Source: Escherichia phage UPEC03
Direction: 5' to 3' (one strand)
DNA length: 64,000 nt
Sequence record: MW250785
Notes under the pieces: generated by a model
Database searches by the model: none
Seen by the model: only the letters and a program-made list of their open reading frames with translations
What the model was told of the DNA's origin: nothing
Position numbers and translations under genes: made by a program
Shown: piece by piece, positions 7,252-46,680 of the stretch
Layout: each line of letters opens with the position of its first letter
Position numbering within the stretch: position 1 is the stretch's first letter

Positions 7252-7259
7252 GTTTACCT

Positions 7260-7969: not shown

Positions 7970-7974
7970 AGTCT

Positions 7975-8760
7975 TTACTCTATTGTGAAAGTGAAAAGGT
8001 TTTGCGCGGGTTCTGGCTCCGGTTCGGGGAATTCCATACAGACAACTTCACACATCGGTTTCACGCCTTTCCATTCTTCCAGATAATATCCGGTATCAAT
8101 GCCGCAACCTGGTTGCATTTCAAGGCCAGTTTCATCAAGAAACTTTTTGCATTTCGATGTTGTCGTTGATTCGTCCTGTTGGAAATAACGCCGTCCAGAG
8201 TAACGAAAATTCGCGGACATCTGCGGGAGAATGAACGTACCCGCACGGGCAATCTGTGAAGCACGTTCAATCACTTTATATTCAAATTCCGCGCCCGTAT
8301 ACTTACCCTTAAAATTGGATGTCTTTATCTTGCCGAAAGGTGGATTGCTGATCGCCATATCAAACAGAGTATCAAACTCCGTCGTTAACGCGTCTGCGTT
8401 AATCCAGGTCGCTTCCGGTACGATACGCTTACCCAACTTATAGTATGTATGGTTTAACTCAACACAGACGATTTCACGCGGTTTGGCGTACATCATCATA
8501 TGAAGCATCGCGAAGGATAGTCCACCGATACCCGCGCACAGGTCAACAACGCTTCCACTGGTACAAGCATCAATCGTGAAATCGCGAGCAAGTCCGATCG
8601 GGGTAAAGAATGCACCCAGTTCAGAGTTATTCGTAAATGCACCTTCATGGAAGTTTTCGATAATGAATAATTTTTCGTCGTAGGTTAGCGCCTTGTCAGA
8701 CTCCACCAGATCCATTATCTTGTTGTGTTGTTTGGTTTCCGCTTTCGTTAACTTCGCCAT
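7975..8760 (-). CDS. putative N6-adenine DNA methyltransferase (amino-MTase, gamma-type motif order)
   Basis: Motif X FFTP, motif I VVDLCAGIGGLS, motif IV NPPFGK in that order. Confidence 0.65.
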   Translation of the reverse strand: MAKLTKAETKQHNKIMDLVESDKALTYDEKLFIIENFHEGAFTNNSELGAFFTPIGLARDFTIDACTSGSVVDLCAGIGGLSFAMLHMMMYAKPREIVCVELNHTYYKLGKRIVPEATWINADALTTEFDTLFDMAISNPPFGKIKTSNFKGKYTGAEFEYKVIERASQIARAGTFILPQMSANFRYSGRRYFQQDESTTTSKCKKFLDETGLEMQPGCGIDTGYYLEEWKGVKPMCEVVCMEFPEPEPEPAQNLFTFTIE

Positions 8761-9091
8761 TGGCTTTTTCCGGTAATAAGAACAGAGGGGTAGATTCTAC
8801 CACATCAAAGCCCCAGTCATCAACAATATTGCTTTCCCAGTCGCGGGTTTCCCACGGGCTGCAAATCCACTTATACACCCCAGCAGGATCTTCAACCTGT
8901 TCAGGCATACCCAGCATTTCCGCATTGATACCTTCGTCCAAATAACCAGGATGAATATTAGGCCAACGCATGATATCAACATAGCCTTTGTCATCAACCG
9001 ATACGATCCATTCTGAACGATACGGGCTTTCGAACTCCGGTTCTTCGTCTGGGTATGCTGCAACTAAAATATCGTGTAATAAATCACTCAT
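8696..9091 (-). CDS. hypothetical acidic protein
   Basis: ORF; 65-nt overlap with downstream MTase start suggests one of the starts is later. Confidence 0.4.
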   Translation of the reverse strand: MSDLLHDILVAAYPDEEPEFESPYRSEWIVSVDDKGYVDIMRWPNIHPGYLDEGINAEMLGMPEQVEDPAGVYKWICSPWETRDWESNIVDDWGFDVVESTPLFLLPEKANGEVNESGNQTTQQDNGSGGV

Positions 9092-9354
9092 TTCACTAAC
9101 CCCTCTTTAACGCCCTCTTTCATGGCTTTCAGAACACCGATAAAAGCGTCTTTGCCACCGATAGCGCCGATGATAAGCATCAGGACACCAACACAACCCG
9201 CTAAACCGATTCTGAACAGGTTCCAGGCAAACGGGATAGCCAGAAGCACTAACCACGGGAACGGAAAGCCCATAAGTGCGTTTAGAACCAGTAAGATAAA
9301 AGCGATTGCAAGTTTCATGATGTCCTCCTTTGTTTGTTTAGAATAAGGTATCAC
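9088..9354 (-). CDS. hypothetical membrane protein
   Basis: Multiple hydrophobic helices. Confidence 0.45.
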   Translation of the reverse strand: MIPYSKQTKEDIMKLAIAFILLVLNALMGFPFPWLVLLAIPFAWNLFRIGLAGCVGVLMLIIGAIGGKDAFIGVLKAMKEGVKEGLVK

Positions 9355-9389
9355 CTTTCGAGAAGGATTGCAATACCTACAGATACAAA

Positions 9390-9412
9390 AAAGCCCCTTT
9401 CGGGGCTTAATT
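9390..9412. terminator. GC hairpin AGCCCC-TTTC-GGGGCT with flanking A/T runs
   Basis: Seen in sequence. Confidence 0.5.
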
Positions 9413-9413
9413 T

Positions 9414-9668
9414 TTATGCTTTGTTGATTAGATACCGAAGAACGTTTTTGGCCTGAACTTCGTTACAGCAGAGTTTGAATTCTGGGTCGATTGGGAGGAA
9501 GCCCCAGAGGAAATCAACGCTACCTTCAACATCTGCTTTCCCGCTTTTCAGCATTTCAACCAGCAAACCTCTGTTTACTACGCTGTTCACTACCGCATCG
9601 AAATAACCCGCGCTGAAATCCAGTTCTGGGTTCATCACTTCGTCGTATGGGTTGTTCAGTAAGTTCAT
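9414..9668 (-). CDS. hypothetical protein
   Basis: ORF. Confidence 0.45.
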   Translation of the reverse strand: MNLLNNPYDEVMNPELDFSAGYFDAVVNSVVNRGLLVEMLKSGKADVEGSVDFLWGFLPIDPEFKLCCNEVQAKNVLRYLINKA

Positions 9669-9747
9669 TTGGTATCTCCTAATCAGTTTTGTTGTCTACG
9701 GGAGTCATATTATCACAATCAGAACTCCCGTCAACCCCTAATCAGGA

Positions 9748-9957
9748 TTATTTTGCGTTTTTTGCAATCCAGAGAGAAAGTTTAGGGAACACGTTTGCCA
9801 TTGCTACCACAAACAGAACCCAGAAAGCCAGCTTAATCACACCGATCACGATCAGAGGGGAGAACACAATCCACCAGGAAGCATTTGCCATAACCCCGAT
9901 TGCTGCCAGTTTCAGAGACAGGAGGATCAGGAACACAATAACGAGAATCTTTTTCAT
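9748..9957 (-). CDS. hypothetical small membrane protein
   Basis: 69 aa, two hydrophobic helices. Confidence 0.45.
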   Translation of the reverse strand: MKKILVIVFLILLSLKLAAIGVMANASWWIVFSPLIVIGVIKLAFWVLFVVAMANVFPKLSLWIAKNAK

Positions 9958-9990
9958 TTCACTATACCTTTGATTGGGGCCGAAGCCCCG

Positions 9991-11430
9991 TTAAAATTGA
10001 ATGTCTGTACTATTTGCTACTTCGGCTAACTTACTGCTTCGGTTAGTCTCAGCTTGTTTTACCATAGCACCTTGTGCTTCTTCAAGCGTTTTCGGCATCT
10101 GACGACCTTTATAATCAGATTGGAACCCGATATCGCTGTTGTCGGTATCCATCCAGCGTTGATTACCCTTGCGCACTTCGAGTTTGAAGTGGTTAAAGTG
10201 GTTCTTATCGCCGTAACGGGATTTGATCTGCTTGAACAACTGCAATCCCTGATCAGCTAACTCGTCGGTCTCGATCACAGCTAACATAAAGTCAGCGGTA
10301 GCTGGAAGACCAGCAGATTCGGCAACGTCGCCCATGCTGATATCAGAAGCATCCCACGCGGCGCGGGTAGTCTGCGCACCAGTCCACATTACGGTATTTG
10401 TTTCAACAGCCAAACCGCGAAGTTCTTCGGCAATCGCTTTAACCAGGATGTATGTGTTTTCCGCCCCGCGTACACGGGTAGAAGCACAGATCCCCAGGTA
10501 GTCAACAATAATCACATCAGGTACGAAACTCTTCTTCAATTTAAGCTCTTTAATCAGCGCTTTGAAGTGGTTCGCGTTCGCCCCTGCTGTTGGGTATTGC
10601 TTAACGATTAAACGCCCGACCTTCGACTGTTTGAGGCGTTCCATACGGTTCTTATAGTCCGCATAGGTGATGTTCCCGTTGTCGATATCGTCCATCGCAA
10701 CATCAAGCAGGTTAGCGTCAATACGTTTAGAACAAACGTGTTCAGCCATTTCCATACTGATATACAGGACGTTTTTACCTGATTGCAGGTAATCAGCAGC
10801 GAGAGAACAAAGCCCCAGAGATTTACCAACGTTAACACCAGCCATTAAGATGTTCAATGTTCCACGTTCTGCGCCGCCTTTGGTAATGGCGTTCAGGATC
10901 GGGATATTGAAAGCAATCTTCATCGCTTTGGACTGGTAAAGCATCCAGCGTTTTTCGTAGTCTTCGAAGTAATCATGACCGACCGAACTATCGAAGCTAA
11001 TCGCTAACGCTTCCGCCATGATGTCAGGGATTGCCCCAACGTCAGGGATTTTGTTGTTGCGTTCGCCAGCAGGTTTTTCAGCATTCGCCTGGATCTCAAT
11101 TGCACGGGACAGAGCGCGATACATTGCCTTGTCGCGACAATAGGTTTCCGTTTCTTTCATCAACCATTCCAGATCTTCCGGCGCATTTTTCATGCTGCGG
11201 ATCATCTTTTTGGTATCTTCGTAGACTACATCACTCAGGCTCTTTTTGTCCAGAGCTACTTCTAAAGCAGTTTGTGAAGGAATGCTGTTGAATTCCTGTA
11301 CGTGCTTATCCATCAAATCAAAGAGAATCTGCGCGTTCCCTTCGAAATATTCACGGCGTAAATGGGGCCACGCCTGAACAAAATACGTACCATTAAAAAC
11401 CAGATTTGAAAATATTGTTTCGACGATCAT
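9991..11430 (-). CDS. 41: replicative DNA helicase (DnaB-like), gp41
   Basis: 479 aa; Walker A GVNVGKS; N-terminal and C-terminal similarity to T4 gp41. Confidence 0.9.
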   Translation of the reverse strand: MIVETIFSNLVFNGTYFVQAWPHLRREYFEGNAQILFDLMDKHVQEFNSIPSQTALEVALDKKSLSDVVYEDTKKMIRSMKNAPEDLEWLMKETETYCRDKAMYRALSRAIEIQANAEKPAGERNNKIPDVGAIPDIMAEALAISFDSSVGHDYFEDYEKRWMLYQSKAMKIAFNIPILNAITKGGAERGTLNILMAGVNVGKSLGLCSLAADYLQSGKNVLYISMEMAEHVCSKRIDANLLDVAMDDIDNGNITYADYKNRMERLKQSKVGRLIVKQYPTAGANANHFKALIKELKLKKSFVPDVIIVDYLGICASTRVRGAENTYILVKAIAEELRGLAVETNTVMWTGAQTTRAAWDASDISMGDVAESAGLPATADFMLAVIETDELADQGLQLFKQIKSRYGDKNHFNHFKLEVRKGNQRWMDTDNSDIGFQSDYKGRQMPKTLEEAQGAMVKQAETNRSSKLAEVANSTDIQF

Positions 11431-13013: not shown

Positions 13014-15719
13014 TTACCAGTCATCACCAAACAGAGTGTTCAGGGATGTGCGTTTTTCGTAATCAATTTTACATGCTTCCGTGATGTTTTGCAACGGACT
13101 AATCACATGTTTTTCAAATAATCCGCCGTAGTCTACCCACTTCAAAATATCTTCTTCGATCTCAGTTGGTAAACGCGTACCGGATTGCCATGCGATGCAA
13201 TCAGCTTGCCACGGGTTTTTATCTCGCAACGGCAGAACCATCACCTTTTCACCTTCCATGATCGGGGTGATTCCTTGAATACCCTTCGTATGGCGGTTAA
13301 AGAACAGAACGCCTTTGATGTGGTTTGGTGTCCCTTTGATTGGGAAGCCAGCACCATCATTATATTTTGAGATATTATTAGCAGATGATACACCAGCTAT
13401 TTCTCGGTAGTCAAGTGCCTTATACTCTTCTTCAAATACTTTGAAGTGTTCGTGTAAGGATTCTTCACCTTCTTGCAGGATGCGACGGATCGCTTCTTTC
13501 AAGAACTTTTTAACCGCTGTCGGTGTACTGCTTCGCTGGGTTTCCATTCCCATGATCTTTAATTTAGGCTTCTCGTAACGGGTTCCTTCGGAGTCCCATA
13601 CGTTAGCCGCATATCGTTTCTTCGCCGTCCAGAAACTACCCAAACCTTTCGATCCCAGAGGTGGCCCAGAAATGATTTCGCGATCCATAAACATCAGGTG
13701 TTCGACGTTGTTCATGTACTCGCAAAGTTCACGGTAGCCCTTATCAATGATAGGTTCCATGCGTTCTTTACTGAACTTATCCAGGAAGTCAACCCAATGG
13801 TTGTTATCCCTGAACTTACTTTCACCGCCGACTTTCGCGATCACGTTGTCCATGCAAACATAAATGGAGTCGGTGTCACAGTAACGCACGTATGCGTAAT
13901 CCGTGGTGTTGCACAGTTCGTTAAGGTATTCGTTAACCTTACGCTCAATCCACTGAATAGCCAACTGCCCGAACATGGTGATCGCGCTGGCGTTTCGAAT
14001 ATCGAAGTAACGGAAATGTTCGTTACCCAACGCACCATAAAGGGAGTTGATACTGATTTTACGGTTAAGCTGTGCGGTGTTCGCCTGTGCGATTTTCTTC
14101 TCACACACTTTCTTCACGGCTTTAAGCATTTGCTTAGACAGCGTTTTCAGTACAGCTTTTGATTCATCACCGAAATCTTCGTAGAACTCGAAATCAGGGT
14201 TGATCATTTGGTTGTGCGCGTCTGTCAGGTGTTCGAGTTCGTGCTTAATCAGTTCGAGATTTCGCTCACCCGCCATCATTCGTTTTTTCCACGCCTTACG
14301 CTGATCAAATACTTTCTTGATCTCGACCGGAATCACGCCTTTAACATCGCGTCGGAACATCCACCCGTTAGGAGAGCAGCTAAATTCGTCGCTAGGACGC
14401 GGCGCAGTCTTATTGATGTATTCATGCATCGGACGCACTGCAAAGCTGTTAGCGATTGTCTCAGGGCTTATATTCACCTGTCGGATGATAGATGGATACA
14501 GACTGGTTAAGTCGAACGATACAATGTAACGGTATGGAGCGACAACCGGATCTTTAACGTATGCACCATCATACGGCGTTTTAGTATGGCGTTTGTTTTC
14601 TGGGATTACTTTCTTCTCTTCACGTAGAGAGTTGTAAATGATTGCGTCCCACGTTTTAAGCGGCGACATAACCCCAGGGAAGTTGATTTTCGCGTAGTAC
14701 GCTACAGACAGAACCAGTTCGATAAAGTTTCGTTTACCGTCGATATCCAACACGCGGATAACGTCAACGATGTTGTACGTGATGTATTTCTGGTGATCCG
14801 CTTGACGAAGTTCAGACAGCGAACCTTCATAATCAACTTTGCTTTTACCTGTTTCGAACTCAGCGATCGCACCCAGAGAGTAAGACGGTTGCGGGGTGAA
14901 ACTGAATTTCTTATAGAGATCCATTCCATCCATTTGAGCAACGCCGTAAATCTCATAGCCCAGTTGTTCGTTCCCGTAATGGTCGGTTGTTGTCTTCGCA
15001 GTCACTTTCCCGAACGGGCTGAAATGACGAACAACGTTTTGCCCGAAGATGTTCAGGTAACGGGTGATGATATACGCAATATCGAACTTGTTTGAGTTCC
15101 AGCCCGTAACAATAACAGGCGTCCGCTCTTTCCAGTCTTTGATATAAGCCGACAACAGCGACTTTTCGGTCTGGAATGAACGGTAAACAATTTTCTTCAA
15201 GTCTTCTTCGCTGATCTCGTTTTCGGTATCAACTTTCGACGCTACCCATTCATCTAACCCGCCCTCGACCAGATCGTACACAAAGAATTTATCTTCAACG
15301 CTGTCATAGTGTGTGATTGCGTCGATAGCATATTTTGCTTCGCGGGGATCAGGGAATTCAGGCGCGGTAACTTCGATATCAAGTGAAGCAATGCGGATCT
15401 TGTCGCGGTCGTATTCGATTTCCTTTCTGTAGGCATCGGATATATACGCCAGCCTGAAATCATCCATGCCTAGCGCTTCCATGCCTACATCTTTCATTCG
15501 CTGCATCCAGTTTTTTGCTTCTTTGATGCTTTCGAAGTTCTTTTTGATGCAGGTCTTGCCGTAAATGTCGCGATATGGCGAGTCTACACCCGCCATAGCG
15601 TGTTGAAACATTGTAGGCGCATATTTTGTTTTGCGAACCTGTTCGCGTCCCTCAGAGTCAATGAAGCGCTCGTAGATGTGATCGCCCATTTGCTCAACGG
15701 ATAGATAAAATTCATTCAT
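13014..15719 (-). CDS. 43: DNA polymerase (family B), gp43
   Basis: 901 aa; N-terminus MNEFYLSVEQMGDHIYERFID...TKYAPTMFQH parallels T4 gp43; exo and pol motifs (YCDTDS). Confidence 0.95.
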   Translation of the reverse strand: MNEFYLSVEQMGDHIYERFIDSEGREQVRKTKYAPTMFQHAMAGVDSPYRDIYGKTCIKKNFESIKEAKNWMQRMKDVGMEALGMDDFRLAYISDAYRKEIEYDRDKIRIASLDIEVTAPEFPDPREAKYAIDAITHYDSVEDKFFVYDLVEGGLDEWVASKVDTENEISEEDLKKIVYRSFQTEKSLLSAYIKDWKERTPVIVTGWNSNKFDIAYIITRYLNIFGQNVVRHFSPFGKVTAKTTTDHYGNEQLGYEIYGVAQMDGMDLYKKFSFTPQPSYSLGAIAEFETGKSKVDYEGSLSELRQADHQKYITYNIVDVIRVLDIDGKRNFIELVLSVAYYAKINFPGVMSPLKTWDAIIYNSLREEKKVIPENKRHTKTPYDGAYVKDPVVAPYRYIVSFDLTSLYPSIIRQVNISPETIANSFAVRPMHEYINKTAPRPSDEFSCSPNGWMFRRDVKGVIPVEIKKVFDQRKAWKKRMMAGERNLELIKHELEHLTDAHNQMINPDFEFYEDFGDESKAVLKTLSKQMLKAVKKVCEKKIAQANTAQLNRKISINSLYGALGNEHFRYFDIRNASAITMFGQLAIQWIERKVNEYLNELCNTTDYAYVRYCDTDSIYVCMDNVIAKVGGESKFRDNNHWVDFLDKFSKERMEPIIDKGYRELCEYMNNVEHLMFMDREIISGPPLGSKGLGSFWTAKKRYAANVWDSEGTRYEKPKLKIMGMETQRSSTPTAVKKFLKEAIRRILQEGEESLHEHFKVFEEEYKALDYREIAGVSSANNISKYNDGAGFPIKGTPNHIKGVLFFNRHTKGIQGITPIMEGEKVMVLPLRDKNPWQADCIAWQSGTRLPTEIEEDILKWVDYGGLFEKHVISPLQNITEACKIDYEKRTSLNTLFGDDW

Positions 15720-16029
15720 TACGGTTTTCTTTCTCCGTGTTTAATCGTGACAGGAATGATACCCCAGCCAGCTTGGTCAGATCAAGCGAGCGTTGCGCTA
15801 ATTTGTGATAGCGTTGGGTGTCAGGCCGATTTAGTTGTTCAACTAGCACGGTATATTCTTCCATGATGCGAGTATAGAACTTAGGGAAGTGATCCCGCGC
15901 GTATGCGTAGGTGCGCAGATCAGAGAGATTGCAAGTAAGAGACAGTTTGATGTCTTCGCTATGCAGACGGTTGATCAAGTGATCGCCGGATTCAATAGCT
16001 TTGATGATTTCTTCAATACGAATTTTCAT
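15712..16029 (-). CDS. hypothetical protein
   Basis: ORF between regA and gene 43. Confidence 0.45.
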   Translation of the reverse strand: MKIRIEEIIKAIESGDHLINRLHSEDIKLSLTCNLSDLRTYAYARDHFPKFYTRIMEEYTVLVEQLNRPDTQRYHKLAQRSLDLTKLAGVSFLSRLNTEKENRNE

Positions 16030-16065
16030 AATTTAGTCCTCACAAGTGGTGTACAACCAATATAA

Positions 16066-16094
16066 CAAAGCCCCTGCATTTCTGCAAGGGCTTT
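16066..16094 (-). terminator. GC hairpin after regA
   Basis: AAGCCCCTGCA-TTTC-TGCAAGGGCTT, T/A runs flanking. Confidence 0.5.
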
Positions 16095-16097
16095 TGA

Positions 16098-16466
16098 TTA
16101 ATGACCGATCCGGTACTTGTATTTCAAAGTCCATTCAGCTTTTTGTGCGTGAGTCAGTACGCGGAAGTTGTTCTCTTCGGAGAATTTCAGATCCGGCGTA
16201 AGGATGGAAACCATACCCCACTCTTCCAGAAGTCGCGCAATGTTATTGCGGCGCAGTTCGTCATCTTCGGTCATGTCAACCTGGCGACCGTCCAGCTTCA
16301 ACAGTTCTTTGAAGTGTACGATAAAATAACGCCCTTGTTTCTGTAGGATGTGGCAAGACTGCCACAACATTTTCTTTTTGTTATTTGCGATCCCGATGCG
16401 GGTCAGCGTTTCGCGAATTTTCAGGAAACTGTCATCGCTGGACAGTTTAATTTCGAGCATGTTCAT
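16098..16466 (-). CDS. regA: translational repressor RegA
   Basis: 122 aa (same as T4 RegA); position downstream of 62/44/45. Confidence 0.8.
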   Translation of the reverse strand: MNMLEIKLSSDDSFLKIRETLTRIGIANNKKKMLWQSCHILQKQGRYFIVHFKELLKLDGRQVDMTEDDELRRNNIARLLEEWGMVSILTPDLKFSEENNFRVLTHAQKAEWTLKYKYRIGH

Positions 16467-16469
16467 ACA

Positions 16470-17042
16470 TCACCATTTCTTTATTAGTTGTTCAACCTTT
16501 TTCTGGTCGGTTTTATTTTTCACAACATCAGCCAACACAGATAAAGCAACTTTCATATTTTTCCGCTTCCACTCGTCCAGTTTTTCAAGCTGTTTGAGTT
16601 CTTCGTAATATTCCATTGCTATACATGTATTTACACCGTATCGTTTTTGGAGAACATGAAGGATAACTTTCATTTCGTTATCTTCGGTGAGTTTAGCCCA
16701 CGCCCCGAACCGCTTACCTTTGCGCACCGTATGCAGGTAATAATCAAAGTGCGCCTGGTCTGGTAAACCGGAACCGATCATATTCATCGTGTATGCAGGA
16801 ATCAGCGTTTCGATATGCTGGCTCATTGCATTGTCGATGAAAAACTTATCGTATGAATCAAGGGCAGAGATCCGTAATGGTGTCTTCCCGTTGTTCAGTT
16901 CTTCGAGCACCATAAACAAGGTGTTTTCCTTGTCTTTGGTGTACTCTTTCACAAGTTCTTCGATCTTGTCCCAGTCTTTAGAACGCCAGGCCGCTTCATG
17001 TTCGTTCAGTTCTTCTTCATCGAGAAAAGCAGCCAGTGACAT
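16470..17042 (-). CDS. 62: clamp loader small subunit gp62
   Basis: Similarity to T4 gp62 (NEHEAAWRSKDW...MNMIGSGL...GKRFGAWAKL); start at MSLAAF. Confidence 0.8.
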   Translation of the reverse strand: MSLAAFLDEEELNEHEAAWRSKDWDKIEELVKEYTKDKENTLFMVLEELNNGKTPLRISALDSYDKFFIDNAMSQHIETLIPAYTMNMIGSGLPDQAHFDYYLHTVRKGKRFGAWAKLTEDNEMKVILHVLQKRYGVNTCIAMEYYEELKQLEKLDEWKRKNMKVALSVLADVVKNKTDQKKVEQLIKKW

Positions 17043-17044
17043 TT

Positions 17045-18043
17045 TTAAGCCTCCCACGCGAGGGTAAGCATTAAGCCCATGAACAGGTATTGCAGGTGAA
17101 TCTCTTTGTTCACTGCCAGCCCGTACTGTGCGTTGTTTTCGCCTACTGCCTGAATGAGTGCAACCTTAGATTCGTTGGTGACGATCGGGTATACCGCATC
17201 CAGAAGTTTAGCCAGGAAAGTTTCATACTCAGGCGCGTACTTGATTGCTTCGGCTCGCAGTGCTTTGAAGTTCTTCGCTTTAAGCCCCTCAATTACTGGT
17301 GTGATATCCGAACCAACAATCTCAGACAGAATACCAGCATCAATTTTGCCGCGCTTAGAATAGAACCCAAGAGCTTTAACGATGGATCGCGCGTCTGGGT
17401 AGTGCTTCTTAACGAATCCGGCGATCACCTGCTGGTCATATTCGATTTTCTCGATTTCGAGGATACCGAAACAGCGTTTGATCATTTGCTTCATCAGTTC
17501 AACGCGTTCTTCCTTCGACGGGGAACCGAACTTGACTACCGGACAGCGGGAGATCAGCGCAGGGTGAATCCCGTTGATGTTGTTCGCGGTGATCATAACA
17601 GTAACGTTCTTGCTGTACGCTTCGATAAAGCTACGCATGTGCTTCTGTGCTTCTGCCATGCCTGGGCGATCGAATTCGTCAATCAGAATGATTTTACCGC
17701 CTTTCTTCTGCGTCATAGAGGACGCGTAACGATCCAGTTCGTTACGGATGAAGTTCACACCACAATCGGAACCGTTGACAAACATCACTTCCGCATCAAC
17801 TTCGTTAGCCAGAACCAGCGCCAGCGTTGTTTTACCCGTACCTGGGGAATCAGAAACCAGAGTCATGTTGTCGATTCGTCCAGACTTGATGAAGCCGCGC
17901 ATCGTCGCTTTATCAGCAGCAGGGAGAATGCATTCATCGATCGTCGTCGGGCGATAGCGCTGATCCCATGCGAATTCTTCGGGAGACTGGGAGATTTTGC
18001 CGTATTTGGTTTCGATTAACTGTACGTTTTCACTAAGTTCCAT
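17045..18043 (-). CDS. 44: clamp loader large subunit gp44 (AAA+)
   Basis: Walker A SPGTGKTT, 332 aa. Confidence 0.9.
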   Translation of the reverse strand: MELSENVQLIETKYGKISQSPEEFAWDQRYRPTTIDECILPAADKATMRGFIKSGRIDNMTLVSDSPGTGKTTLALVLANEVDAEVMFVNGSDCGVNFIRNELDRYASSMTQKKGGKIILIDEFDRPGMAEAQKHMRSFIEAYSKNVTVMITANNINGIHPALISRCPVVKFGSPSKEERVELMKQMIKRCFGILEIEKIEYDQQVIAGFVKKHYPDARSIVKALGFYSKRGKIDAGILSEIVGSDITPVIEGLKAKNFKALRAEAIKYAPEYETFLAKLLDAVYPIVTNESKVALIQAVGENNAQYGLAVNKEIHLQYLFMGLMLTLAWEA

Positions 18044-18107
18044 AATATTACCTTCAATTGATTATCAAAAAGGGGCTTAACGCCCCTTGTGTACTACTTT
18101 GTTTATC

Positions 18108-18779
18108 TTACTTGAACTGGCTGGTTGCTTCAAGTACCACTACATACGCAACGCCGTTTTCGGACGAGAATTTCGCAGCGCCGCGAGAAGAGATTTCAAC
18201 TTTGTAATCGCTGTTGATGAACTGCATGTTGTCAATCTTCATATCGAAGTTGAACATGTTATCACCTTCGTAATCGCCCACTTCCACAGAGAAGGTTGAC
18301 TGGCTTTCTTTACTTTTCGCGGTGATTACCAGCTTGCCGTTGATTGGCTCAACAGACAGGTCGGTCAGTTTCATCATGCGTGACGCTTTGATCAGTTTTT
18401 CGAAATCGTTCGCGCTAATCTGGAAAATCAGATCCGCAACTGGCATTTCCAGACGCTTCTTAGGCTGTACGATTGTGGTTGGATCGCTTGAACGCTCAAC
18501 GATTTTCATTTTCTCACCACGAATGACGATTTCGCCAGTGGACAGATCGTGAGTTACTTCGGCATCAGTGCCTACAACGTTCAGCATGTTCAGGAATGAG
18601 TTCAGATCGTAGATACCTACATCTTCGTCAATTACGTCAGAAATCGTTGCTTCTGCGTAAACTACGCTGTTGATGGATTTCGTCATAATGAACGAACCCT
18701 TTTTCAGCATTACAGACGGGTTGATCTGGGAGAAGTTTTTCAGGATGTCGATCGTTTGTTTAGAGAATTTCATATTCAA
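18108..18779 (-). CDS. 45: sliding clamp gp45
   Basis: 223 aa; MKFSKQTIDILKNFSQINPSVMLKKGSFIMT parallels T4 gp45. Confidence 0.9.
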   Translation of the reverse strand: MNMKFSKQTIDILKNFSQINPSVMLKKGSFIMTKSINSVVYAEATISDVIDEDVGIYDLNSFLNMLNVVGTDAEVTHDLSTGEIVIRGEKMKIVERSSDPTTIVQPKKRLEMPVADLIFQISANDFEKLIKASRMMKLTDLSVEPINGKLVITAKSKESQSTFSVEVGDYEGDNMFNFDMKIDNMQFINSDYKVEISSRGAAKFSSENGVAYVVVLEATSQFK

Positions 18780-18793
18780 CCTATAGTTTTCAA

Positions 18794-19078
18794 TTAGGCA
18801 AAAGTGCCGTTAATCAGGGATTCTACAACGCGATCCGCCGCATTGTCAAGGAATTCTTTGCTTTTGGATTCTGTGATTTTCGTACCCGCTTCGCGAGCGT
18901 CGTGAATCAATCCGGTATGTACTGCGCTTACTGCTTCGTCGATCCGTTTGTAATGCTCAAAGCGTTCAGCTTGAGGCATCGCACGGAAAATCTCTTTGAT
19001 GTTTTCCGGCACTTTACCTACCCAGGATTTGCGAACGTTGTTCAGATGCGCTACATATACGTTTTGTTCTAAATTCAT
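18794..19078 (-). CDS. hypothetical protein (occupies the position of T4 rpbA upstream of gene 45)
   Basis: Synteny only. Confidence 0.35.
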   Translation of the reverse strand: MNLEQNVYVAHLNNVRKSWVGKVPENIKEIFRAMPQAERFEHYKRIDEAVSAVHTGLIHDAREAGTKITESKSKEFLDNAADRVVESLINGTFA

Positions 19079-19099
19079 ATCTACCTCAAACTTTCAAAT

Positions 19100-19117
19100 T
19101 GGGGGCTTTCGCCCCCG
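19100..19117 (-). terminator. GC hairpin GGGGGC-TTTC-GCCCCC after gene 32
   Basis: Seen in sequence. Confidence 0.5.
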
Positions 19118-19123
19118 TAAGCA

Positions 19124-20104
19124 TTACAGATCCAGCAGTTTATCCAGGTCGTCATCACCGGAACCACCTTCCAGATCAAACGGAGGGGTATTATCATCTT
19201 CCGGTACGCTTCCGCCTACGTTCAGTTGACTTACGCCACCAGATTCTTTAGCACCTTTGGACTGGTTGCCATTATCGAAGTTTTTCAGTTCGTTGTCAAA
19301 TGAGTTCAGTTCTGAATCCAGATCCGCACCAGCGCTTGCGCCAGCACCCATTGCAGCACCACCGAATACTTTGGTGAACTTCGCGGTCAATTCCGCAGTC
19401 GGTTTGAACTGGTCTGGTGCAGTGATTGGACGCAGATCGCTCATACCTTCGAAGATTTCTTTCTGACGCGCTTCGTCTTCGATGCCTTTGATTGGGACAG
19501 GAACACCAAATTTGCTGTCGTCGTAGTTAGGCCAGTCGCCTACTTTCTTCGCGGTCAGGGTGAAGTTAGCGCCACCAAACGGACAGGTTACAGCAACACC
19601 TGGTTCATCCAGATCTGGGTTCCCCGCGATAGCCGCAGTGATTTTATCCATGATCTTTTTACCGAAGCGGAACTTAAACACCTTACCTTCGTTTTCTGGG
19701 TGCATTGGATCTTTAACCACCAGAATGTTCGCCCAGAACGATTGTTTACGTCCGATCATACCCAGTGTTTTTTCGGCTTCGCTGCCTTTCACTTTCGCTT
19801 TTTCGAACAGATCGTTTTCAGAGATATACTGACACACAGGGCAAGCATCGTAATCGCCGTGGGTAGACGGGCAGTTTTCGATGAACCACTGGTTATTCTT
19901 TTTGAATGAATGGTTGACGATACGCACGAACGCCAGTTCATCATCAGATCGGTTAGGCAGGAAGCGGATCACCGCAGAACCGTTTTTCTGTGCATCGACA
20001 CCGAGTTTCCACTCTTTTTCATCTTTCTGGAAGCCGGATGAACCTTTCAGAGCGGCGACTTGTTCTTGCAGTTTGGTTGGATCTTGACGTTTAAAGAATG
20101 ACAT
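19124..20104 (-). CDS. 32: single-stranded DNA-binding protein gp32
   Basis: EWKLGVDAQKNGSAVIRFLP...HGDYDACPVC and acidic C-terminal tail, as in T4 gp32. Confidence 0.9.
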   Translation of the reverse strand: MSFFKRQDPTKLQEQVAALKGSSGFQKDEKEWKLGVDAQKNGSAVIRFLPNRSDDELAFVRIVNHSFKKNNQWFIENCPSTHGDYDACPVCQYISENDLFEKAKVKGSEAEKTLGMIGRKQSFWANILVVKDPMHPENEGKVFKFRFGKKIMDKITAAIAGNPDLDEPGVAVTCPFGGANFTLTAKKVGDWPNYDDSKFGVPVPIKGIEDEARQKEIFEGMSDLRPITAPDQFKPTAELTAKFTKVFGGAAMGAGASAGADLDSELNSFDNELKNFDNGNQSKGAKESGGVSQLNVGGSVPEDDNTPPFDLEGGSGDDDLDKLLDL

Positions 20105-20107
20105 ATG

Positions 20108-20773
20108 TTATTTCTCGTTTAAGTTAATTAAAGTTTGTTTCATTAAGTTTCGGTATTTTACGATTTCTTCGTTACTGATTTCAACTAATTTTCTGTATGC
20201 GTTTAGTTTTTTACTAAATTCATTCCAGACGAAATCCGTTGCGATTTCATCGTGTTTATTTATGATGTCTAAAAACGAGTCGAGGATCAAGAATGATTCA
20301 TAAGAAATCACCCCAGACTGTACGAGTTTGCTGATATACGAGGTTGATGATTTGACGCTATACTGAAACACCGTTGAGAGGGGAATACCTTTCATGCGGG
20401 AAAATTCATACAGGTTTTTTACATCGTCCACGAAAATATTATCAATTCGCCTCAACTTGCCTATGTATTGACGATAAAACACGATCGTATCTTCGTCTAC
20501 ATCCCCGACCCAGAAGTCGGGGTTAGCTACCATGTTGGAGAGAAGTATAAGATATATTTCTTTAAATGTAAACCTTTCGGCTAACTTTTTGAAAAAATAC
20601 TTATCTCTTCTCTTTTCGAACGCTTTTTCAGTGATCTTTATTTCCCATTTGTACTTGATCGCGTCATACTTCCCAGCAAAGTGATTTTTCATCACCAGAT
20701 ACAGTTTGTATACCGCGATCGGTTTCAAACGGGAATTAGCGTCTGAACTGTCAAACGGGGTTTTAAATTTCAC
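20108..20773 (-). CDS. 59: helicase loader gp59
   Basis: VYKLYLVMKNHFAGKYDAIKY...KRRDKYFFKKL closely parallels T4 gp59. Confidence 0.85.
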   Translation of the reverse strand: MKFKTPFDSSDANSRLKPIAVYKLYLVMKNHFAGKYDAIKYKWEIKITEKAFEKRRDKYFFKKLAERFTFKEIYLILLSNMVANPDFWVGDVDEDTIVFYRQYIGKLRRIDNIFVDDVKNLYEFSRMKGIPLSTVFQYSVKSSTSYISKLVQSGVISYESFLILDSFLDIINKHDEIATDFVWNEFSKKLNAYRKLVEISNEEIVKYRNLMKQTLINLNEK

Positions 20774-41258: not shown

Positions 41259-41300
41259 TCAACAGGCTATCTTCGGATAGCCTTTTTTCTGGAGAAGCAC

Positions 41301-41870
41301 ATGCGCTTTTTAAAATACGCAAGCTGGTTTGTACTGGTTCCCCTGGATATTCTGTCCGGTGTTCTGGCTATTCTGCTGGCTCCTTTCGTGGTTCCGTTCT
41401 ACAGTGACGAAACAGGACATTTGCCTAAAGGGTTCCGTTGGATGGAAACATTCGATAACCCGATCGATGGTGATGGTGGACATATCCGGCGTTGGGCTAA
41501 CATCCGGTATCACTTAGGCGCTCTGGGTGTGTATGCGCAGCGTGTAGGCTGGTTGTGGCGTAACAAGGCGTACAACTTCGCTTATAACGTCTTAGGGCGT
41601 GAAGCACAATCAGACTTCGACTGGAAGGGAAACCCGAAAACAGAAGGTGGTTCCGACCCATCACGTCACGGTTATCTGTTGATGTGGAATGATTCGGCAT
41701 GGGGGCTTTATGTCTTCAAACCGTGGCTTAAAGTCGGAAAGGTTCAGTTCTGCTTACGCGTGTATTGCGGGTGGAAACTGAAACAGGAAGTAACTGACCC
41801 TAACGGGCTGGATCGTGCAATGCTGGCGTTCCATATCAACCCGTTACGTTATTATGTCGTAGAAAGGTAA
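41301..41870 (+). CDS. hypothetical membrane protein
   Basis: N-terminal TM helix. Confidence 0.45.
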
Positions 41871-41874
41871 TACA

Positions 41875-42237
41875 ATGAAAGCATATCAGATTTTAGAAGG
41901 TTTACACACTGGTACAATCTACCTGGAAGAAGGTAATGATGTTCGTGTGGTGGTATCCAAAACCCTCGAAATGGATTCAGTGATCGGTAAAGCTCGCGTT
42001 GCTCCATTCGCAAAACGTGAAGTCGATATTGAATTTCAACCCACTGTTAAAGTGGAAGGTGGACAACACTTAAACGTAAACGTGTTGCGCCGTGAAACTC
42101 TGGAAGACGCTGTGAAGCATCCAGAAAAATACCCACAGTTAACGATCCGTGTGTCCGGCTATGCAGTGCGTTTCAATTCACTGACTCCTGAACAACAGCG
42201 CGACGTTATCGCCCGAACCTTTACAGAGAGTCTATAA
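41875..42237 (+). CDS. grcA: autonomous glycyl-radical cofactor (GrcA/YfiD-like)
   Basis: C-terminal ...[61 protein letters not shown] with RVSGY glycyl-radical motif. Confidence 0.85.
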
Positions 42238-42518
42238 TGGCGATTGAAGACGTACAGGGCTATAAGCCCCATTCAAAAGAAAAGATCGACAAAGTAAACC
42301 ACATCAAGGCCGCTGAAATTGCCCTGGGCGAAATCTTCAAAGAACTGGATGAAGAGTATTCAAGCGATTACGCGGTATCAGATACCGATTCATTCACCAC
42401 AGAAGAACTCGATGCGATGCTTGAACGTGTCCATCAAATCCAACTGGCGAAAGACCGACTGAAAGAAGCCTCTATGTGGGCGTGTCGTGCGGTGTTCCAG
42501 CCAGAAGAAAAGTATTAA
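42237..42518 (+). CDS. hypothetical protein
   Basis: ORF, ATGA-type coupling. Confidence 0.4.
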   Translation: MAIEDVQGYKPHSKEKIDKVNHIKAAEIALGEIFKELDEEYSSDYAVSDTDSFTTEELDAMLERVHQIQLAKDRLKEASMWACRAVFQPEEKY

Positions 42519-42526
42519 AATCCAGC

Positions 42527-42553
42527 CGTTGCCGAAAGGTAGCGGCTTTTTTC
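42527..42553 (+). terminator. hairpin CCGTTGCC-GAAA-GGTAGCGG + TTTTTT
   Basis: Seen in sequence. Confidence 0.55.
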
Positions 42554-42643
42554 GTTTTTATGCAAAATAATGCTTGCACTGAATCAGGCTTTCTTGTATC
42601 TTTAACCACGTAGGCAAGACAACTTAACTTTGAGGATGACATT

Positions 42644-42937
42644 ATGAAAACTTACAACATGAAAGAACTGGTTTGCTTCAACACTCGTCGTGAAGCCCGT
42701 GCGTATGTTCTGGCGGCTGGTAAGAATACCTCTGCTGTAATCGACCTGGGTACTGATAAAGCTGTTGGCGCACGTTGGGCTGCTGTTGTGGTTATCGCTG
42801 CTCCTGTGACTCCTGTTAAAACTCTGGTTCTGGGTGCGCGTAAAGCCGAAACTCTGAAAACCAGCACTTGCGGGGCGGGTGGTGTTCATAATGTTACGGT
42901 CATTCGAAAAAGATCTTTTAATCGAGTCGGTGTATGA
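42644..42937 (+). CDS. hypothetical protein
   Basis: ORF. Confidence 0.35.
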   Translation: MKTYNMKELVCFNTRREARAYVLAAGKNTSAVIDLGTDKAVGARWAAVVVIAAPVTPVKTLVLGARKAETLKTSTCGAGGVHNVTVIRKRSFNRVGV

Positions 42938-43027
42938 AGGTATACGGGGAAAACATAAAGAACAATCTCCGAAGAGATTGATGTAATCAATGAATTTCTA
43001 TGTAGACCATACGTTAAGAGAGTTATT

Positions 43028-43468
43028 ATGAATATTGGTAGTGGTGATTCATACCCATCATGCGCATTGAGCAACTTCGCCCCGCATCCGTTTACGTTTG
43101 ACGGGGTAGAATGTGCATCAATGGAGGGCTTTTTACAAAGTCTGAAATTCAGCAATCCAGATATGCAAGCGCATGTGTGTACGCTGGTTGGTAAAGCCGC
43201 CAAGTTCAAAGGCAAGAAAAAGAAATGGTATCGCGATCAGACCCTATACTGGAAGGGTATGCCGATTCACCGTGAATCAGAAGCATATCAAATCCTGATT
43301 GAAAACGCGTACAATGCTCTTTTCCTGAATGACGGGTTCCGCCGTGCGCTGGCTGCAACCGGAAAAAGTACCTTGACTCATTCAATGGGAAAGAATAAGA
43401 TGAATGAAACGGTACTCACTGAACGTGAGTTTGTCCGAAATTTAACCCGATTGAGAGATCTGTTATGA
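43028..43468 (+). CDS. NADAR-domain (YbiA-like) protein
   Basis: CALSNFAPHPFTFDGVECASMEGFLQSLKF resembles the NADAR signature. Confidence 0.6.
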   Translation: MNIGSGDSYPSCALSNFAPHPFTFDGVECASMEGFLQSLKFSNPDMQAHVCTLVGKAAKFKGKKKKWYRDQTLYWKGMPIHRESEAYQILIENAYNALFLNDGFRRALAATGKSTLTHSMGKNKMNETVLTEREFVRNLTRLRDLL

Positions 43469-43743
43469 TAGGTTATAAAGATTATGATGAAAGAGTAGAA
43501 TGCGCGTTCCTGTTCAAAGGCGCGATTAACCCGTTGGCATTACTCCACGCACAGGGTGCTTTGAGTTCTACCCTGATTATGGGTGTTATCTACAAAGCAG
43601 GTGTGTATTACGTTACCATCGGCGCAAACAACATTAACGTGATCAACAGCTACGTTGAAAAATGTAAGCTGAAAGATATTGTGTTCGATAAAGTCGAAAT
43701 GGATGTTCCAGGCTTCGACGCTGTTTATATGTACAAGGGCTGA
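43465..43743 (+). CDS. hypothetical protein
   Basis: ORF. Confidence 0.4.
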   Translation: MIGYKDYDERVECAFLFKGAINPLALLHAQGALSSTLIMGVIYKAGVYYVTIGANNINVINSYVEKCKLKDIVFDKVEMDVPGFDAVYMYKG

Positions 43744-43745
43744 TA

Positions 43746-43991
43746 ATGAGTTACGTAATTTATTTCGATTGTTCGGATCTTGATCCTTTCGTTCTGCAAC
43801 AGGCAAAGAAATATCATCAAGATATCACTGGTATCAGTGTCACGAACGATGATATGCTGTGCATCGAATTTGATTATTATCGTACATTTGAGCGTGACAA
43901 ATTCCTTGCGGATATTGAAGCGTTTAAAGTACCCTTTTCTTTGATCGTTATGAGGTTAAATCTTGAAACCAGTTATTCTTACCGACATTGA
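43746..43991 (+). CDS. hypothetical protein
   Basis: ORF. Confidence 0.4.
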   Translation: MSYVIYFDCSDLDPFVLQQAKKYHQDITGISVTNDDMLCIEFDYYRTFERDKFLADIEAFKVPFSLIVMRLNLETSYSYRH

Positions 43992-44568
43992 CGGGATCGC
44001 CGTAAAATGGCAGTCGGGGTTGCCGTTCTTTTTGTCTAAACACAACATGCCGACCGATATCGCGCTGGATATGGTTACGGATGAAAAGTTCCGCGATATG
44101 ACCGAAATCTTCGGGTGTGATCACCAACTGGCGAAAATTCTCATGGAAGAATACAACAACAGTTCGTTTATTCGCTATCTAAGCGCGTATGACGATGCGT
44201 TAATTGTTATCAACCGTCTGAAAGCCAAATATGATTTTGTGGCTGTCACGGCGCTGGGAACCACTCCTACGGCAAGCCTTAACCGTATTGCAAACCTGAA
44301 CACGCTGTTCCCTTCTGCATTCAAAGAGGTTTGTGTTGTCGGTCACGGCGAAACGAAAGTACATCGTTACCTGGAAGCCAAAGCAAAATATGGCGATCGT
44401 TTAGTATGTTTCATTGATGACCTTGCAGTAAACTTGAATGAGTGTCATAACGTCATCAGTCAGTTGCCGTTATTCCATATGTTGCGTGGCGAACGTAGTG
44501 AACCGAGTGTACCTCATACTAAAGTGAATAACTGGCATGAAATTGAAAAAGCAATTGAGAACTCTTGA
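43963..44568 (+). CDS. HAD-superfamily hydrolase (possible deoxynucleotide 5'-monophosphatase)
   Basis: Motif I LTDIDGI, C-terminal FIDD. Confidence 0.45.
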   Translation: MKPVILTDIDGIAVKWQSGLPFFLSKHNMPTDIALDMVTDEKFRDMTEIFGCDHQLAKILMEEYNNSSFIRYLSAYDDALIVINRLKAKYDFVAVTALGTTPTASLNRIANLNTLFPSAFKEVCVVGHGETKVHRYLEAKAKYGDRLVCFIDDLAVNLNECHNVISQLPLFHMLRGERSEPSVPHTKVNNWHEIEKAIENS

Positions 44569-45088
44569 TGAAGAAACGCAAGGTATAGAAAACCTACTAC
44601 AATGTATTCGAGTAGAACCAGAAACCGGAAAATGTTTCTGGTTGGAAAAGAGAAGTAATAAAATTCCTGCTGGAAGTGAAGCAGGTTCTTTTCATAAATC
44701 AAGTGGATATACGCGAATAAAATTCGAAAATGCGATGTACATCCGGTCACGGGTGATATTTTATTACGTTAATGGTTATCTTCCAGTGATGGTTGACCAT
44801 GTTCACGGTGTTGAATGCGGTGATATGATTTCTAATCTAAGGGAGTCCAATCAGGTAACAAATCAACAAAACCGCACACGGAATAAAAATAATACCGTTG
44901 GGTTTAAGGGCGTGTCATTCAACAAGAAATCGCAAAAATATAGCGCCAAAATCACTTTACATGGAGTGACTAAGTGGTTAGGATTTTATGATTCTGCCGA
45001 GGAAGCAAGTGAAGCATATAAGGCCAAAGCACTCGTTTCCTTTACACATAATGAAAGGTACTTAAATGATCTTACAGATTCTAAATGA
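44537..45088 (+). CDS. HNH homing endonuclease with AP2 domain (paralogue C)
   Basis: RSRVIFYYVNGYLPVMVDHVHGVECGDMISNLR + AP2-like VGFKGVSF...GFYDSAEEASEAY; overlaps both flanking genes. Confidence 0.8.
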   Translation: MKLKKQLRTLDEETQGIENLLQCIRVEPETGKCFWLEKRSNKIPAGSEAGSFHKSSGYTRIKFENAMYIRSRVIFYYVNGYLPVMVDHVHGVECGDMISNLRESNQVTNQQNRTRNKNNTVGFKGVSFNKKSQKYSAKITLHGVTKWLGFYDSAEEASEAYKAKALVSFTHNERYLNDLTDSK

Positions 45089-46589
45089 ACTCGCTTCGAC
45101 TCTGAAAATTTCAGAGAAGGAAGCGATCCTGAAACGTAATGCAGGTAATGATCTGCTGAAAGAGATTTTCCGCATTACGTACACGAAACAGATTATGTTT
45201 CACATTAAGAAGTTTCCGCAGGTGGACGGTAAGCCAGGCACAACCCCGCTATCGAATGCTATCGCGGATTTGATGTCTGATTTGGCAACGCGAAAATATA
45301 CGGGCAACGCAGCCCGTGATCGTCTGCTGGATATCGTATCATCGGTGAACGAGAATGATCGCGAAGTGCTTCGCCGTATCATTAACCGCGATCTGGAATG
45401 TGGTGCTGGTACAACGTTACCGAACCGCGTATGGAAGAAACTCATTCCAGAACAGCCTCAATGCCTCGCTACGCCGTTTAGTGAGAAAGCCTTAAAACGT
45501 ATTCGCTTCCCTGCTTACTCGCAGCTTAAAGCCGATGGTGCGCGTTGTATGTCCGATCTGTTAGAGAATCAGATCCGCAAAGCAACCCGCGCGGGAAATG
45601 AGTATGAAGGTTTGGTGAATCTGGACAAGGATCTGAAAAAGATTCGTGAATATCTGGGTTATGATGTTGTACTTGATGGAGAACTGATTTATGTCCCTGC
45701 TGAAAAAACTGCTGTCGTTCCTTCAAACAGCGTTCCATTTAGTCTTGCTGGGTTTATGGGCGATGACGACGATTCTGTTTCTGACCTTGTGGCAGATGTT
45801 AGGCGGGAAGCTACCGAGAACGAGACACAAGCGGAAGCGAAACGCGAAGAGGGCAACGGGATTGTAAACAAATCCCTGAAAGGTACTATCAGCGACGAAG
45901 AACAGCGCAATATCGTTTATGTTGTCTGGGATATCGTACCGTATGAAGTATACTATGGCGATGCTCCGAGTGTTCAACCATATTGCGATCGTTTCTCTAT
46001 CCTGGAAGGTGCGCTGGCTGGCTCTGGTGTAACATCGGTTAAGTTGATCCCTTCTATCCTGGTGCAGAACTACGCGGAAGCGAAAAAGGATTACAACAAT
46101 TACCGCAATGACGGTAAAGAGGGTTCAATCCTGAAAAACGTTGATTTCAAATGGAAGGATTCACGCGTTGCGGATCAGGTGAAGTTGAAGAACAAAACCC
46201 CGATTGAACTGCGAATCATCGACGTGTACGAACACACCAAAGAAGCTCATAAGGTCGGAGGGTTCGTGGTTGAGGACTTATCAGGAGAAGCCAGAACAAA
46301 CACAGGTTCCGGTCTGACTGATACGGACTACCGATACGATGAAGACGGTATTAACCGCGTGTACATCCCGTTAGAAGAACGTGGTGAACTGGATCGCGAA
46401 TACATCATGGCGAACAAAGATGACTATATCGGCGCTATCGTCGAAATGGAAGTTGACGGACTCCAGAAGTCTAAAACGCGTAAGAAGGGCGAACCTGAGT
46501 TCAGTTTCTTCTTGCCAATCATCAAGAAGATCCGACGCGATAAGACCGAACCGGATGATATTCACGTTATCTTCGCTGATCTGTTTTAA
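45066..46589 (+). CDS. 30: ATP-dependent DNA ligase gp30
   Basis: MILQILNELAS...FPAYSQLKADGARC (adenylation Lys)...co-linear with T4 DNA ligase. Confidence 0.9.
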   Translation: MILQILNELASTLKISEKEAILKRNAGNDLLKEIFRITYTKQIMFHIKKFPQVDGKPGTTPLSNAIADLMSDLATRKYTGNAARDRLLDIVSSVNENDREVLRRIINRDLECGAGTTLPNRVWKKLIPEQPQCLATPFSEKALKRIRFPAYSQLKADGARCMSDLLENQIRKATRAGNEYEGLVNLDKDLKKIREYLGYDVVLDGELIYVPAEKTAVVPSNSVPFSLAGFMGDDDDSVSDLVADVRREATENETQAEAKREEGNGIVNKSLKGTISDEEQRNIVYVVWDIVPYEVYYGDAPSVQPYCDRFSILEGALAGSGVTSVKLIPSILVQNYAEAKKDYNNYRNDGKEGSILKNVDFKWKDSRVADQVKLKNKTPIELRIIDVYEHTKEAHKVGGFVVEDLSGEARTNTGSGLTDTDYRYDEDGINRVYIPLEERGELDREYIMANKDDYIGAIVEMEVDGLQKSKTRKKGEPEFSFFLPIIKKIRRDKTEPDDIHVIFADLF

Positions 46590-46605: not shown

Positions 46606-46680
46606 AAAAGCCCCTTGCATGAGTAAGGGGCTTTTGTTATATTACAAACATCGAAACGAAACAGACAAAAGGAACATCCC
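46606..46680 (+). promoter_or_regulatory. PeSL-like cassette: terminator hairpin containing -35 TTGCAT, 17-nt spacer, -10 TATATT, conserved leader ACAAACATCGAAACGAAACAGACAAAAGGAAC
   Basis: Seen in sequence; best-preserved copy. Confidence 0.55.

Follow-up and report, generated by a model that had tools for sequence, protein, structure and literature searches.

Gene organization at the locus

The window analysed here is the whole stretch of 64,000 nucleotides from Escherichia phage UPEC03 (sequence record MW250785). At positions 43028..43468 of its plus strand lies an ORF with an ATG start, encoding a phage-type NADAR of 146 aa (16.6 kDa, pI 9.3). It is the ortholog of T4 gp30.3, the product of the gene renamed adfN (anti-DarT factor NADAR) by Johannesman et al. 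(Nat Commun 2025; PMC11825919). The original prediction had called a NADAR-like protein of 146 aa at this very place, and the ORF list agrees in position and strand; the peptide quoted in its favour, CALSNFAPHPFTFDGVECASMEGFLQSLKF, corresponds to residues 12-41 of the ORF. Judged by its profile matches and the breadth of its homologs, the ORF stands far beyond chance. Its GC content equals that of the window (44.9% and 44.6%, respectively). A putative, purine-rich Shine-Dalgarno-like sequence, AAGAGAG, can be read 5 nt before the ATG (43016..43022, +), and the adfN stop codon shares an ATGA (43465..43468, +) with the start codon of the ORF that follows (92 aa, phrog_7604).

An alternative-frame ORF of 41 aa lies inside adfN (43173-43298, +, frame +1). 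It has the same frame as the overlapping T4 ORF 30.3' (75 aa) and a similar offset, but the two share no sequence similarity, indicating that ORF 30.3' is not conserved in the window. A promoter scan returned 12 sites against 11.2 expected in shuffled sequences, none of them upstream of adfN, and a MotA-box-like TGCTT at 42571-42575 stands about 19 nt from a TAnnnT, which is the wrong spacing. Since the scan was at the level of the shuffles and the MotA-like box is mis-spaced, neither a promoter nor a timing was assigned to adfN. Terminator-like sites numbered 16, against 5.7 expected in shuffles. Strong hairpins of this type were found on the plus strand at 41264-41283, after the ORF that ends at 41258; at 42524-42547, after vs.4 and before the small ORF upstream of adfN; and at 46606-46635, after the DNA ligase gene. 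At 42963-42980, some 50 nt ahead of the adfN start, there is a further hairpin with a 7-bp stem (CAATCTCCGAAGAGATTG on the plus strand), which lacks a T-tract on that strand.

Over 3 kb around adfN, the window aligns gap-free and at 98.5% identity with Escherichia phage RB16 (Straboviridae, Pseudotevenvirus), and at 97-98% identity with several Klebsiella, Enterobacter, Citrobacter and Cronobacter phages. The RB16 co-directional block comprises, in this order, cd, 31, two tRNAs, vs.6, vs.4, one small ORF, 30.3, two small ORFs, 30.2, a homing endonuclease and DNA ligase 30. According to the RB16 annotation and the ORFs of the window, adfN is placed upstream of 30.2 and of ligase gene 30 (45066-46589, +) as in T4, with two small ORFs and the homing endonuclease interposed. 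The location among early genes that had been proposed for it fits this block from cd to ligase 30, while the timing itself is extrapolated from the T4 ortholog.

Upstream of adfN, an ORF of 189 aa (41301-41870, +) matches DUF7338 (E = 1.1e-64), and its hydrophobic N-terminus suggests a membrane protein. The vs.6 ortholog (41875-42237, +) contains a glycine-radical domain (PF01228, E = 2.6e-18) and resembles the autonomous glycyl radical cofactor GrcA. It is followed by the vs.4 ortholog (93 aa, 42237-42518, +), which matches the Acb2/Tad1 hairpin domain (PF24729, E = 5.4e-17); the members of the Acb2/Tad1 family are phage sponges for cyclic-nucleotide immune signals. Since about 0.5 kb separates vs.4 from adfN, which follows it in this co-directional block, two counter-defence genes adjoin here. 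In T4, by contrast, vs.4 is outside the 30.x cluster, the vs genes being about 60 kb away. Three small ORFs flanking adfN, all on the plus strand, encode proteins of 97 aa (phrog_7596, 42644-42937), 92 aa (phrog_7604, 43465-43743) and 81 aa (phrog_6222, 43746-43991); they have no Pfam match and are not found in the T4 30.x cluster. Because they are positioned between two known anti-defence genes, the three would be candidate anti-defence genes by position only.

On the other side, the gene 30.2 ortholog (201 aa, 43963-44568, +) starts with MKPVILTDIDG, including a HAD-like DxDG, and has no Pfam match. It aligns solely to residues 1-195 of the 278-aa T4 gp30.2, with 47% identity. The AP2/HNH homing-endonuclease ORF (44537-45088, +) begins 32 nt before the 30.2 stop codon and overlaps the start of the ligase gene, and its insertion may have truncated 30.2. 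Gene 30.1 is absent.

The region beyond the ligase bears on one possible role of the gene. In T4, alt is located about 3 kb from 30.3, just beyond the ligase, and a NADAR in such a position could undo the modifications made by the phage's Alt/ModA/ModB-type ADP-ribosyltransferases and thereby tune these enzymes. In the window, no alt-like gene follows the ligase, where the RB16 annotation has small hypothetical ORFs and then baseplate genes. Moreover, the tested NADARs act on base N-glycosidic linkages and are not known to act on the arginine-ADPr generated by Alt and Mod, and T4 adfN is dispensable when DarTG1 is absent (bioRxiv 10.1101/2025.11.20.689424). We therefore regard this role as extremely unlikely.

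Family assignment

The protein matches the Pfam family PF08010 (Phage_30_3) over profile positions 2-138 of 138, with 188.5 bits against a cut-off of 36 (E = 5.9e-56), and PHROG 652 with E = 2e-52. Compared with T4 gp30.3 by BLASTP, it is 42% identical from end to end (residues 1-146 against 4-152, E = 1e-35). It is 99% identical to RB16 gp30.3, annotated as '30.3, gp30.3 conserved hypothetical protein' (RB16p082), and 100% identical to the protein of Klebsiella phage Olmo. The protein of Klebsiella phage KpV477, which is 75% identical to that of the window, is counted among the 'Phage NADARs' by two NADAR papers in their supplementary tables. The PF08010 match, the identity to T4 gp30.3 and the shared 30.3-30.2-ligase neighbourhood bear out the NADAR-like call made beforehand. 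The gene is the Pseudotevenvirus (RB16-type) ortholog of T4 30.3/adfN, and its product represents the NADAR superfamily in a minimal, 'core-only' form.

The general NADAR profiles gave weaker results. The Pfam NADAR model PF08719 scored 14.3 bits, below its gathering score of 35.1 (E = 0.049), and TIGR02464, which describes riboflavin intermediates N-glycosidases, scored 17.9 bits, below its cut-off of 73.7 (E = 0.0029). Within the family, PF08719 matched 7 of 22 members weakly, with a best E of 0.0021. The expectation of a significant NADAR profile match, on which the original prediction had staked itself, thus did not hold in its literal form, neither for PF08719 nor for TIGR02464; superfamily membership is carried by the fold search, hhalign and residue mapping. 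As the gp30.3 clade has a Pfam model of its own, the sub-threshold scores do not refute that membership. Searches of PDB sequences were not decisive, given that phmmer with the window protein had no match at E <= 10 and hmmsearch with the family profile had YbiA as a marginal top match (E = 0.063), so that the fold search and hhalign were needed. Using the 22-member family profile against E. coli YbiA, hhalign gave a probability of 91.9% (E = 7e-07, 95 columns).

A YbiA-like N-glycosidase acting on intermediates of the riboflavin pathway, or else a protein that is an inactive relic, could be read from the weak TIGR02464 match and from YbiA being the best structural match. The TIGR02464 score is nevertheless far under its cut-off, and the last-strand Glu that defines YbiA is replaced here by His118. 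Decay is argued against by the conservation of the catalytic residues and of the full length under strong family-wide constraint. The chance that the protein is a YbiA-like enzyme or a relic seems to us next to negligible.

The family is widespread. By tblastn, matches were found in 1,507 phage records, whose hosts are far apart from one another and include Vibrio, Aeromonas, Acinetobacter, Rhizobium and Brevundimonas. At E <= 1e-3, 4,449 protein clusters were matched, and clustering at 50% identity leaves at least 1,435 representatives of the family. A C-terminal truncation of some close relatives, suggested by an apparent tblastn coverage of 93%, was rejected, since the protein of Cronobacter phage D6b is full length with an identical C-terminus. 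Fusions of the gp30.3 domain were seen among metagenome-derived proteins: to YpsA/SLOG in P0205, to BspA-type leucine-rich repeats in P0208, to Lgt in P0168 and to an FtsW-like region in P0203. In P0125, which is 480 aa long and was matched in three stretches, the domain may be repeated in tandem. Gene-call fusions may account for some of these cases, and the partners are heterogeneous and uninformative on function.

Predicted structure and conserved residues

The AlphaFold2 model, built from a 28-sequence alignment, is confident, with a mean pLDDT of 87 and a pTM of 0.84. The structure prediction proposed as a check of the NADAR-like call came out in its favour: the model has the YbiA-like alpha+beta fold, and fold searches including Foldseek gave YbiA (2B3W) as the best structural match. 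The top three structures were the same in Foldseek and in the other fold search, and T4 AdfN had given these three as well, with similar Z (Johannesman et al., PMC11825919). The model shows a beta-hairpin at residues ~71-86, which corresponds to a family insertion of ~11-16 residues relative to YbiA and PnNADAR, and a C-terminal alpha-helix (132-145). This helix, residues 132-146 (43421..43465, +), is complete to the stop codon and aligns with the last 15 residues of T4 AdfN, the alignment running to the last residue of the T4 protein.

Residues were mapped in a joint MAFFT alignment of the family with the YbiA sequence and the 8BAU chain sequence obtained from the PDB search, and conservation was calculated over 150 diverse representatives from clusters at 50% identity or less. 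The N-terminal NADAR signature block, CALSNF...EGFLQSLKF (residues 12-41; 43061..43150, +), aligns with YbiA residues 27-57 in both hmmsearch and hhalign, and its S15 and N16 are 99% conserved. The catalytic glutamate is E33 (GAG, 43124..43126, +), which by alignment corresponds to T4 AdfN E36, PnNADAR E43 and E. coli C7 DarG1 E88. The lysine binding the phosphate/adenine of ADP-ribose is K40 (AAA, 43145..43147, +), equivalent to T4 K43, PnNADAR K50 and C7 K95. In the last beta-strand, within TLTHSMG, the histidine H118 (CAT, 43379..43381, +) aligns with T4 H123, with the Glu in the 'LVEH' of YbiA and with PnNADAR E125. E33 and K40 are in invariant alignment columns, and the representatives have E at the first position in 95%, K at the second in 97% and H at the third in 97% of cases. 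The loss of catalytic residues, which would have spoken against the original prediction, was thus not observed: E33, K40 and H118 are all kept in relation to T4 E36, K43 and H123.

A basic loop, K59-F-K-G62-K63-K-K-K-W67 (43202..43228, +), was also placed by MAFFT. In this alignment, K59 (90% K) corresponds to PnNADAR K75, which equals E. coli C7 DarG1 K115; G62 to PnNADAR G78; K63 to PnNADAR R79, keeping a basic residue; and W67 (82% W) to PnNADAR W89. The hhalign register agrees with that of MAFFT for A58, G62 and K63 and differs at W67, for which reason the W67/W89 equivalence is tentative. Of the PnNADAR contacts to ADP-ribose (E43, K50, R79, W89, E125, D130 and W133), four have aligned counterparts in E33, K40, K63 and H118, while the pyrophosphate-binding D-x-x-W-G motif of classical NADARs (D130/W133 in PnNADAR) is absent. 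A T128-x-x-T131-x-x-E134 block is found instead, and R82, T128, T131 and E134 are near-invariant in the family. Gene identity, family membership and NADAR fold are shown here, together with an intact C-terminal helix and the conservation of the residues E33, K40 and H118.

Probable function of the RB16-type AdfN

Much is known about the T4 protein. T4 AdfN is a DNA ADP-ribosylglycohydrolase of NADAR fold that neutralises DarTG1 during infection without binding DarT1 (PMC11825919). The purified protein strips ADP-ribose from DarT1-modified DNA, and its E36A variant does not; rescue is impaired by E36A, by K43A and by truncation of the C-terminus (PMC11825919). Full-length adfN alleles confer DarTG1 resistance on T-even phages, including T4 and T2, whereas the RB69 allele has lost its last 15 residues (one helix) by a frameshift and RB69 is sensitive to DarTG1 (PMC11825919). 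Guanine-specific activity of T4 gp30.3 was independently observed in vitro (PMC11125620), and in a transposon screen 30.3/adfN was conditionally essential only under DarTG1 (bioRxiv 10.1101/2025.11.20.689424).

According to these data, it is highly probable that the RB16-type AdfN erases the guanine ADP-ribosylation that DarT1 introduces into phage DNA, and so counters DarTG1. By orthology to T4 AdfN, we infer that the substrate would be G-ADPr DNA, the target DarTG1 and the expression early. Infection of hosts carrying DarTG1-type toxin-antitoxin systems would release DarT1, which would ADP-ribosylate guanines of the phage DNA and block its replication. The phage enzyme, presumably produced from the pre-replicative gene block, would bind the ADP-ribose moiety through K40 and the K59/G62/K63 loop, and E33 and H118 would hydrolyse the N-glycosidic bond between ribose and guanine, restoring unmodified DNA so that replication could go on. 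Such an enzyme would be an orphan resembling a type IV antitoxin and acting without binding the toxin. Against this explanation it must be taken into account that the protein is only 42% identical to the tested T4 protein, that PF08719 is not significantly matched and that the promoter is unassigned.

The proposal that the gene is a candidate anti-DarT counter-defence factor thus finds backing, through T4 AdfN orthology (PMC11825919, PMC11125620, bioRxiv 10.1101/2025.11.20.689424), in a narrower form than first put forward. The part concerning guanine and DarT1 stands. The part concerning DarT2 does not, because no phage NADAR tested so far reverses the thymidine modification made by this toxin (PMC11825919, PMC11125620, bioRxiv 10.1101/2025.11.20.689424). 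For the same reason, a plaque assay on DarT2 hosts would be expected to be negative. T4 AdfN has no effect against DarTG2 (PMC11825919).

It has been proposed from comparative genomics (Iyer et al.) that most phage NADARs degrade soluble ADP-ribose-derived immune signals or toxins, such as cADPR isomers and ADPr derivatives, and this rather than the removal of DNA adducts could be the main role of the enzyme. The neighbouring vs.4, a nucleotide-signal sponge of the Acb2/Tad1 type, and the SLOG (YpsA) fusions of some family members point in that direction. However, the proposal is older than the AdfN experiments, in which the T4 ortholog acted on ADP-ribosylated DNA in vitro and was conditionally essential specifically under DarTG1, and NADARs are not known to act on cyclic ADPr signals. 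In our view, a main role against soluble signals is quite unlikely.

The range of substrates is a different question. All NADAR families, including that of T4, clear G-ADPr in vitro from RNA as well as from DNA (PMC12945103), and as a T4-type NADAR also acts on RNA, the physiological substrate could exceed DarT1-modified DNA. The enzyme might then be a broader eraser of guanine-ADP-ribose, acting on RNA (tRNA, mRNA) or on DNA modified by guanine ADP-ribosyltransferases other than DarT (pierisin/ScARP-like or YarT-like), with DarT1 as one of several adversaries. Such a role would be consistent with the presence of the family in 1,507 phage records over distant hosts, the range of AdfA, limited to Tevenvirinae, being much narrower. 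On the other hand, the sole in vivo phenotype so far is specific to DarTG1, and the T4 NADAR leaves C-ADPr (PMC12945103) and T-ADPr in place. Such a broader activity, which we consider unlikely, would extend the DarT1-directed explanation and would neither contradict nor replace it.

As the gene belongs to an experimentally characterised and named family, the finding is already known in kind: an RB16-like phage of Klebsiella, Enterobacter or E. coli has what appears to be a working copy of an anti-DarTG1 enzyme that is already characterised. Its value lies in annotation, since the majority of database records still read 'hypothetical protein', and in telling which of the therapeutic phages of Klebsiella and Enterobacter are expected to withstand DarTG1 hosts.

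Comparison with known NADARs and anti-DarT factors

Several phage anti-DarT factors act by other means. AdfA (T4 gp61.2) and AdfB (ICP1) are non-enzymatic DarT binders, and AdfM (T4 Tk.4) is a macrodomain protein directed against DarTG2; all three are without sequence similarity to the window protein. Homologs of AdfA and AdfM were sought in the window and only noise was obtained (E >= 0.39). The 61-41 interval, where adfA/61.2 lies in T4, corresponds to positions ~5800-11000 of the window and to 15091-20287 of RB16, where a DNA methyltransferase and several small hypothetical ORFs are annotated, and this syntenic interval of the window has no AdfA homolog. AdfA homologs were found in 487 records, all of Tevenvirinae. 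With AdfA so confined and AdfN present in 1,507 phage records and at least 1,435 clusters, AdfN is probably the general anti-DarT1 device of T4-like phages.

Phage NADARs of the gp30.3 type form one of four recognised NADAR families and are defined by His in the last strand, as opposed to Glu in YbiA and Asp in DarG1 (PMC11125620, PMC11543638). The DarG1 proteins of E. coli C7 and Geobacter lovleyi (8BAT; Schuller et al., Mol Cell 2023, PMC11543638) belong to host toxin-antitoxin modules, whereas the gene of the window is a phage-encoded orphan: among its neighbours (vs.6, vs.4, the small ORFs, 30.2, the HNH endonuclease and the ligase), none matched an ADP-ribosyltransferase or DarT. DarG1 also differs in its length of 219 aa, with an N-terminal beta-sheet/helix extension, while the window protein has a core of 146 aa whose NADAR motif begins at residue 12. 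E. coli YbiA (2B3W), an N-glycosidase of the NADAR/YbiA family, differs in its last-strand Glu, in having D-x-x-W-G in place of the TxxTxxE block and in lacking the beta-hairpin insertion, and it rescues DarT1 toxicity inefficiently (PMC11125620).

AdfN-Bas32 and AdfN-Bas60, from Markadamsvirinae and Vequintavirinae, are likewise orphan phage NADARs that counter DarTG1 through G-ADPr removal (PMC11825919). By description, they were independently acquired, belong to other NADAR branches and are autonomous antitoxins, unlike T4 AdfN, which is fully functional only in T-even infection (PMC11825919). As T4 AdfN depends in this way on its context, the context dependence of the window enzyme may be different.

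T4 AdfN itself is the closest parallel. The two proteins share PF08010, the length class (146 against 152 aa), the catalytic triplet E33/K40/H118 (E36/K43/H123 in T4) and the C-terminal helix, and their genes share the placement upstream of 30.2 and ligase 30 as well as a 4-nt ATGA overlap with the downstream gene (30.3/30.2 in T4). They differ in that identity is limited to 42% between Pseudotevenvirus and Tequatrovirus, and in the two extra small ORFs and the homing endonuclease that separate 30.3 from the ligase in the window. They differ also in the basic loop. The Tevenvirinae copies, those of T4 and IME08, have Q at the position of K59 and no W at that of W67, whereas the window protein has the family-consensus K59 and W67. 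Both residues are kept in the copies of KVP40 and of Rhizobium and Brevundimonas phages, as in most other clades; Aeromonas Aswh_1 and Ochrobactrum ORM_20 keep the tryptophan and have Y and Q, respectively, in place of the lysine. In E. coli C7 DarG1, K95 is essential, and K115 is dispensable for catalysis yet essential to neutralise DarT1 in cells. The equivalent of K115 is kept here, and T4 AdfN, with Q, fails outside T-even infection, which suggests that context might not matter to the RB16-type enzyme. That K59 and W67 would make it an autonomous DarT1 antidote like AdfN-Bas32 and AdfN-Bas60 is a possibility that we put forward with considerable doubt. If K59 and W67 mediate engagement of the DNA substrate, their loss could explain why T4 AdfN fails as an antitoxin outside T-even infection, and the natural variation at these positions between this clade and the T-evens offers a directly testable hypothesis for the context dependence of T4 AdfN.
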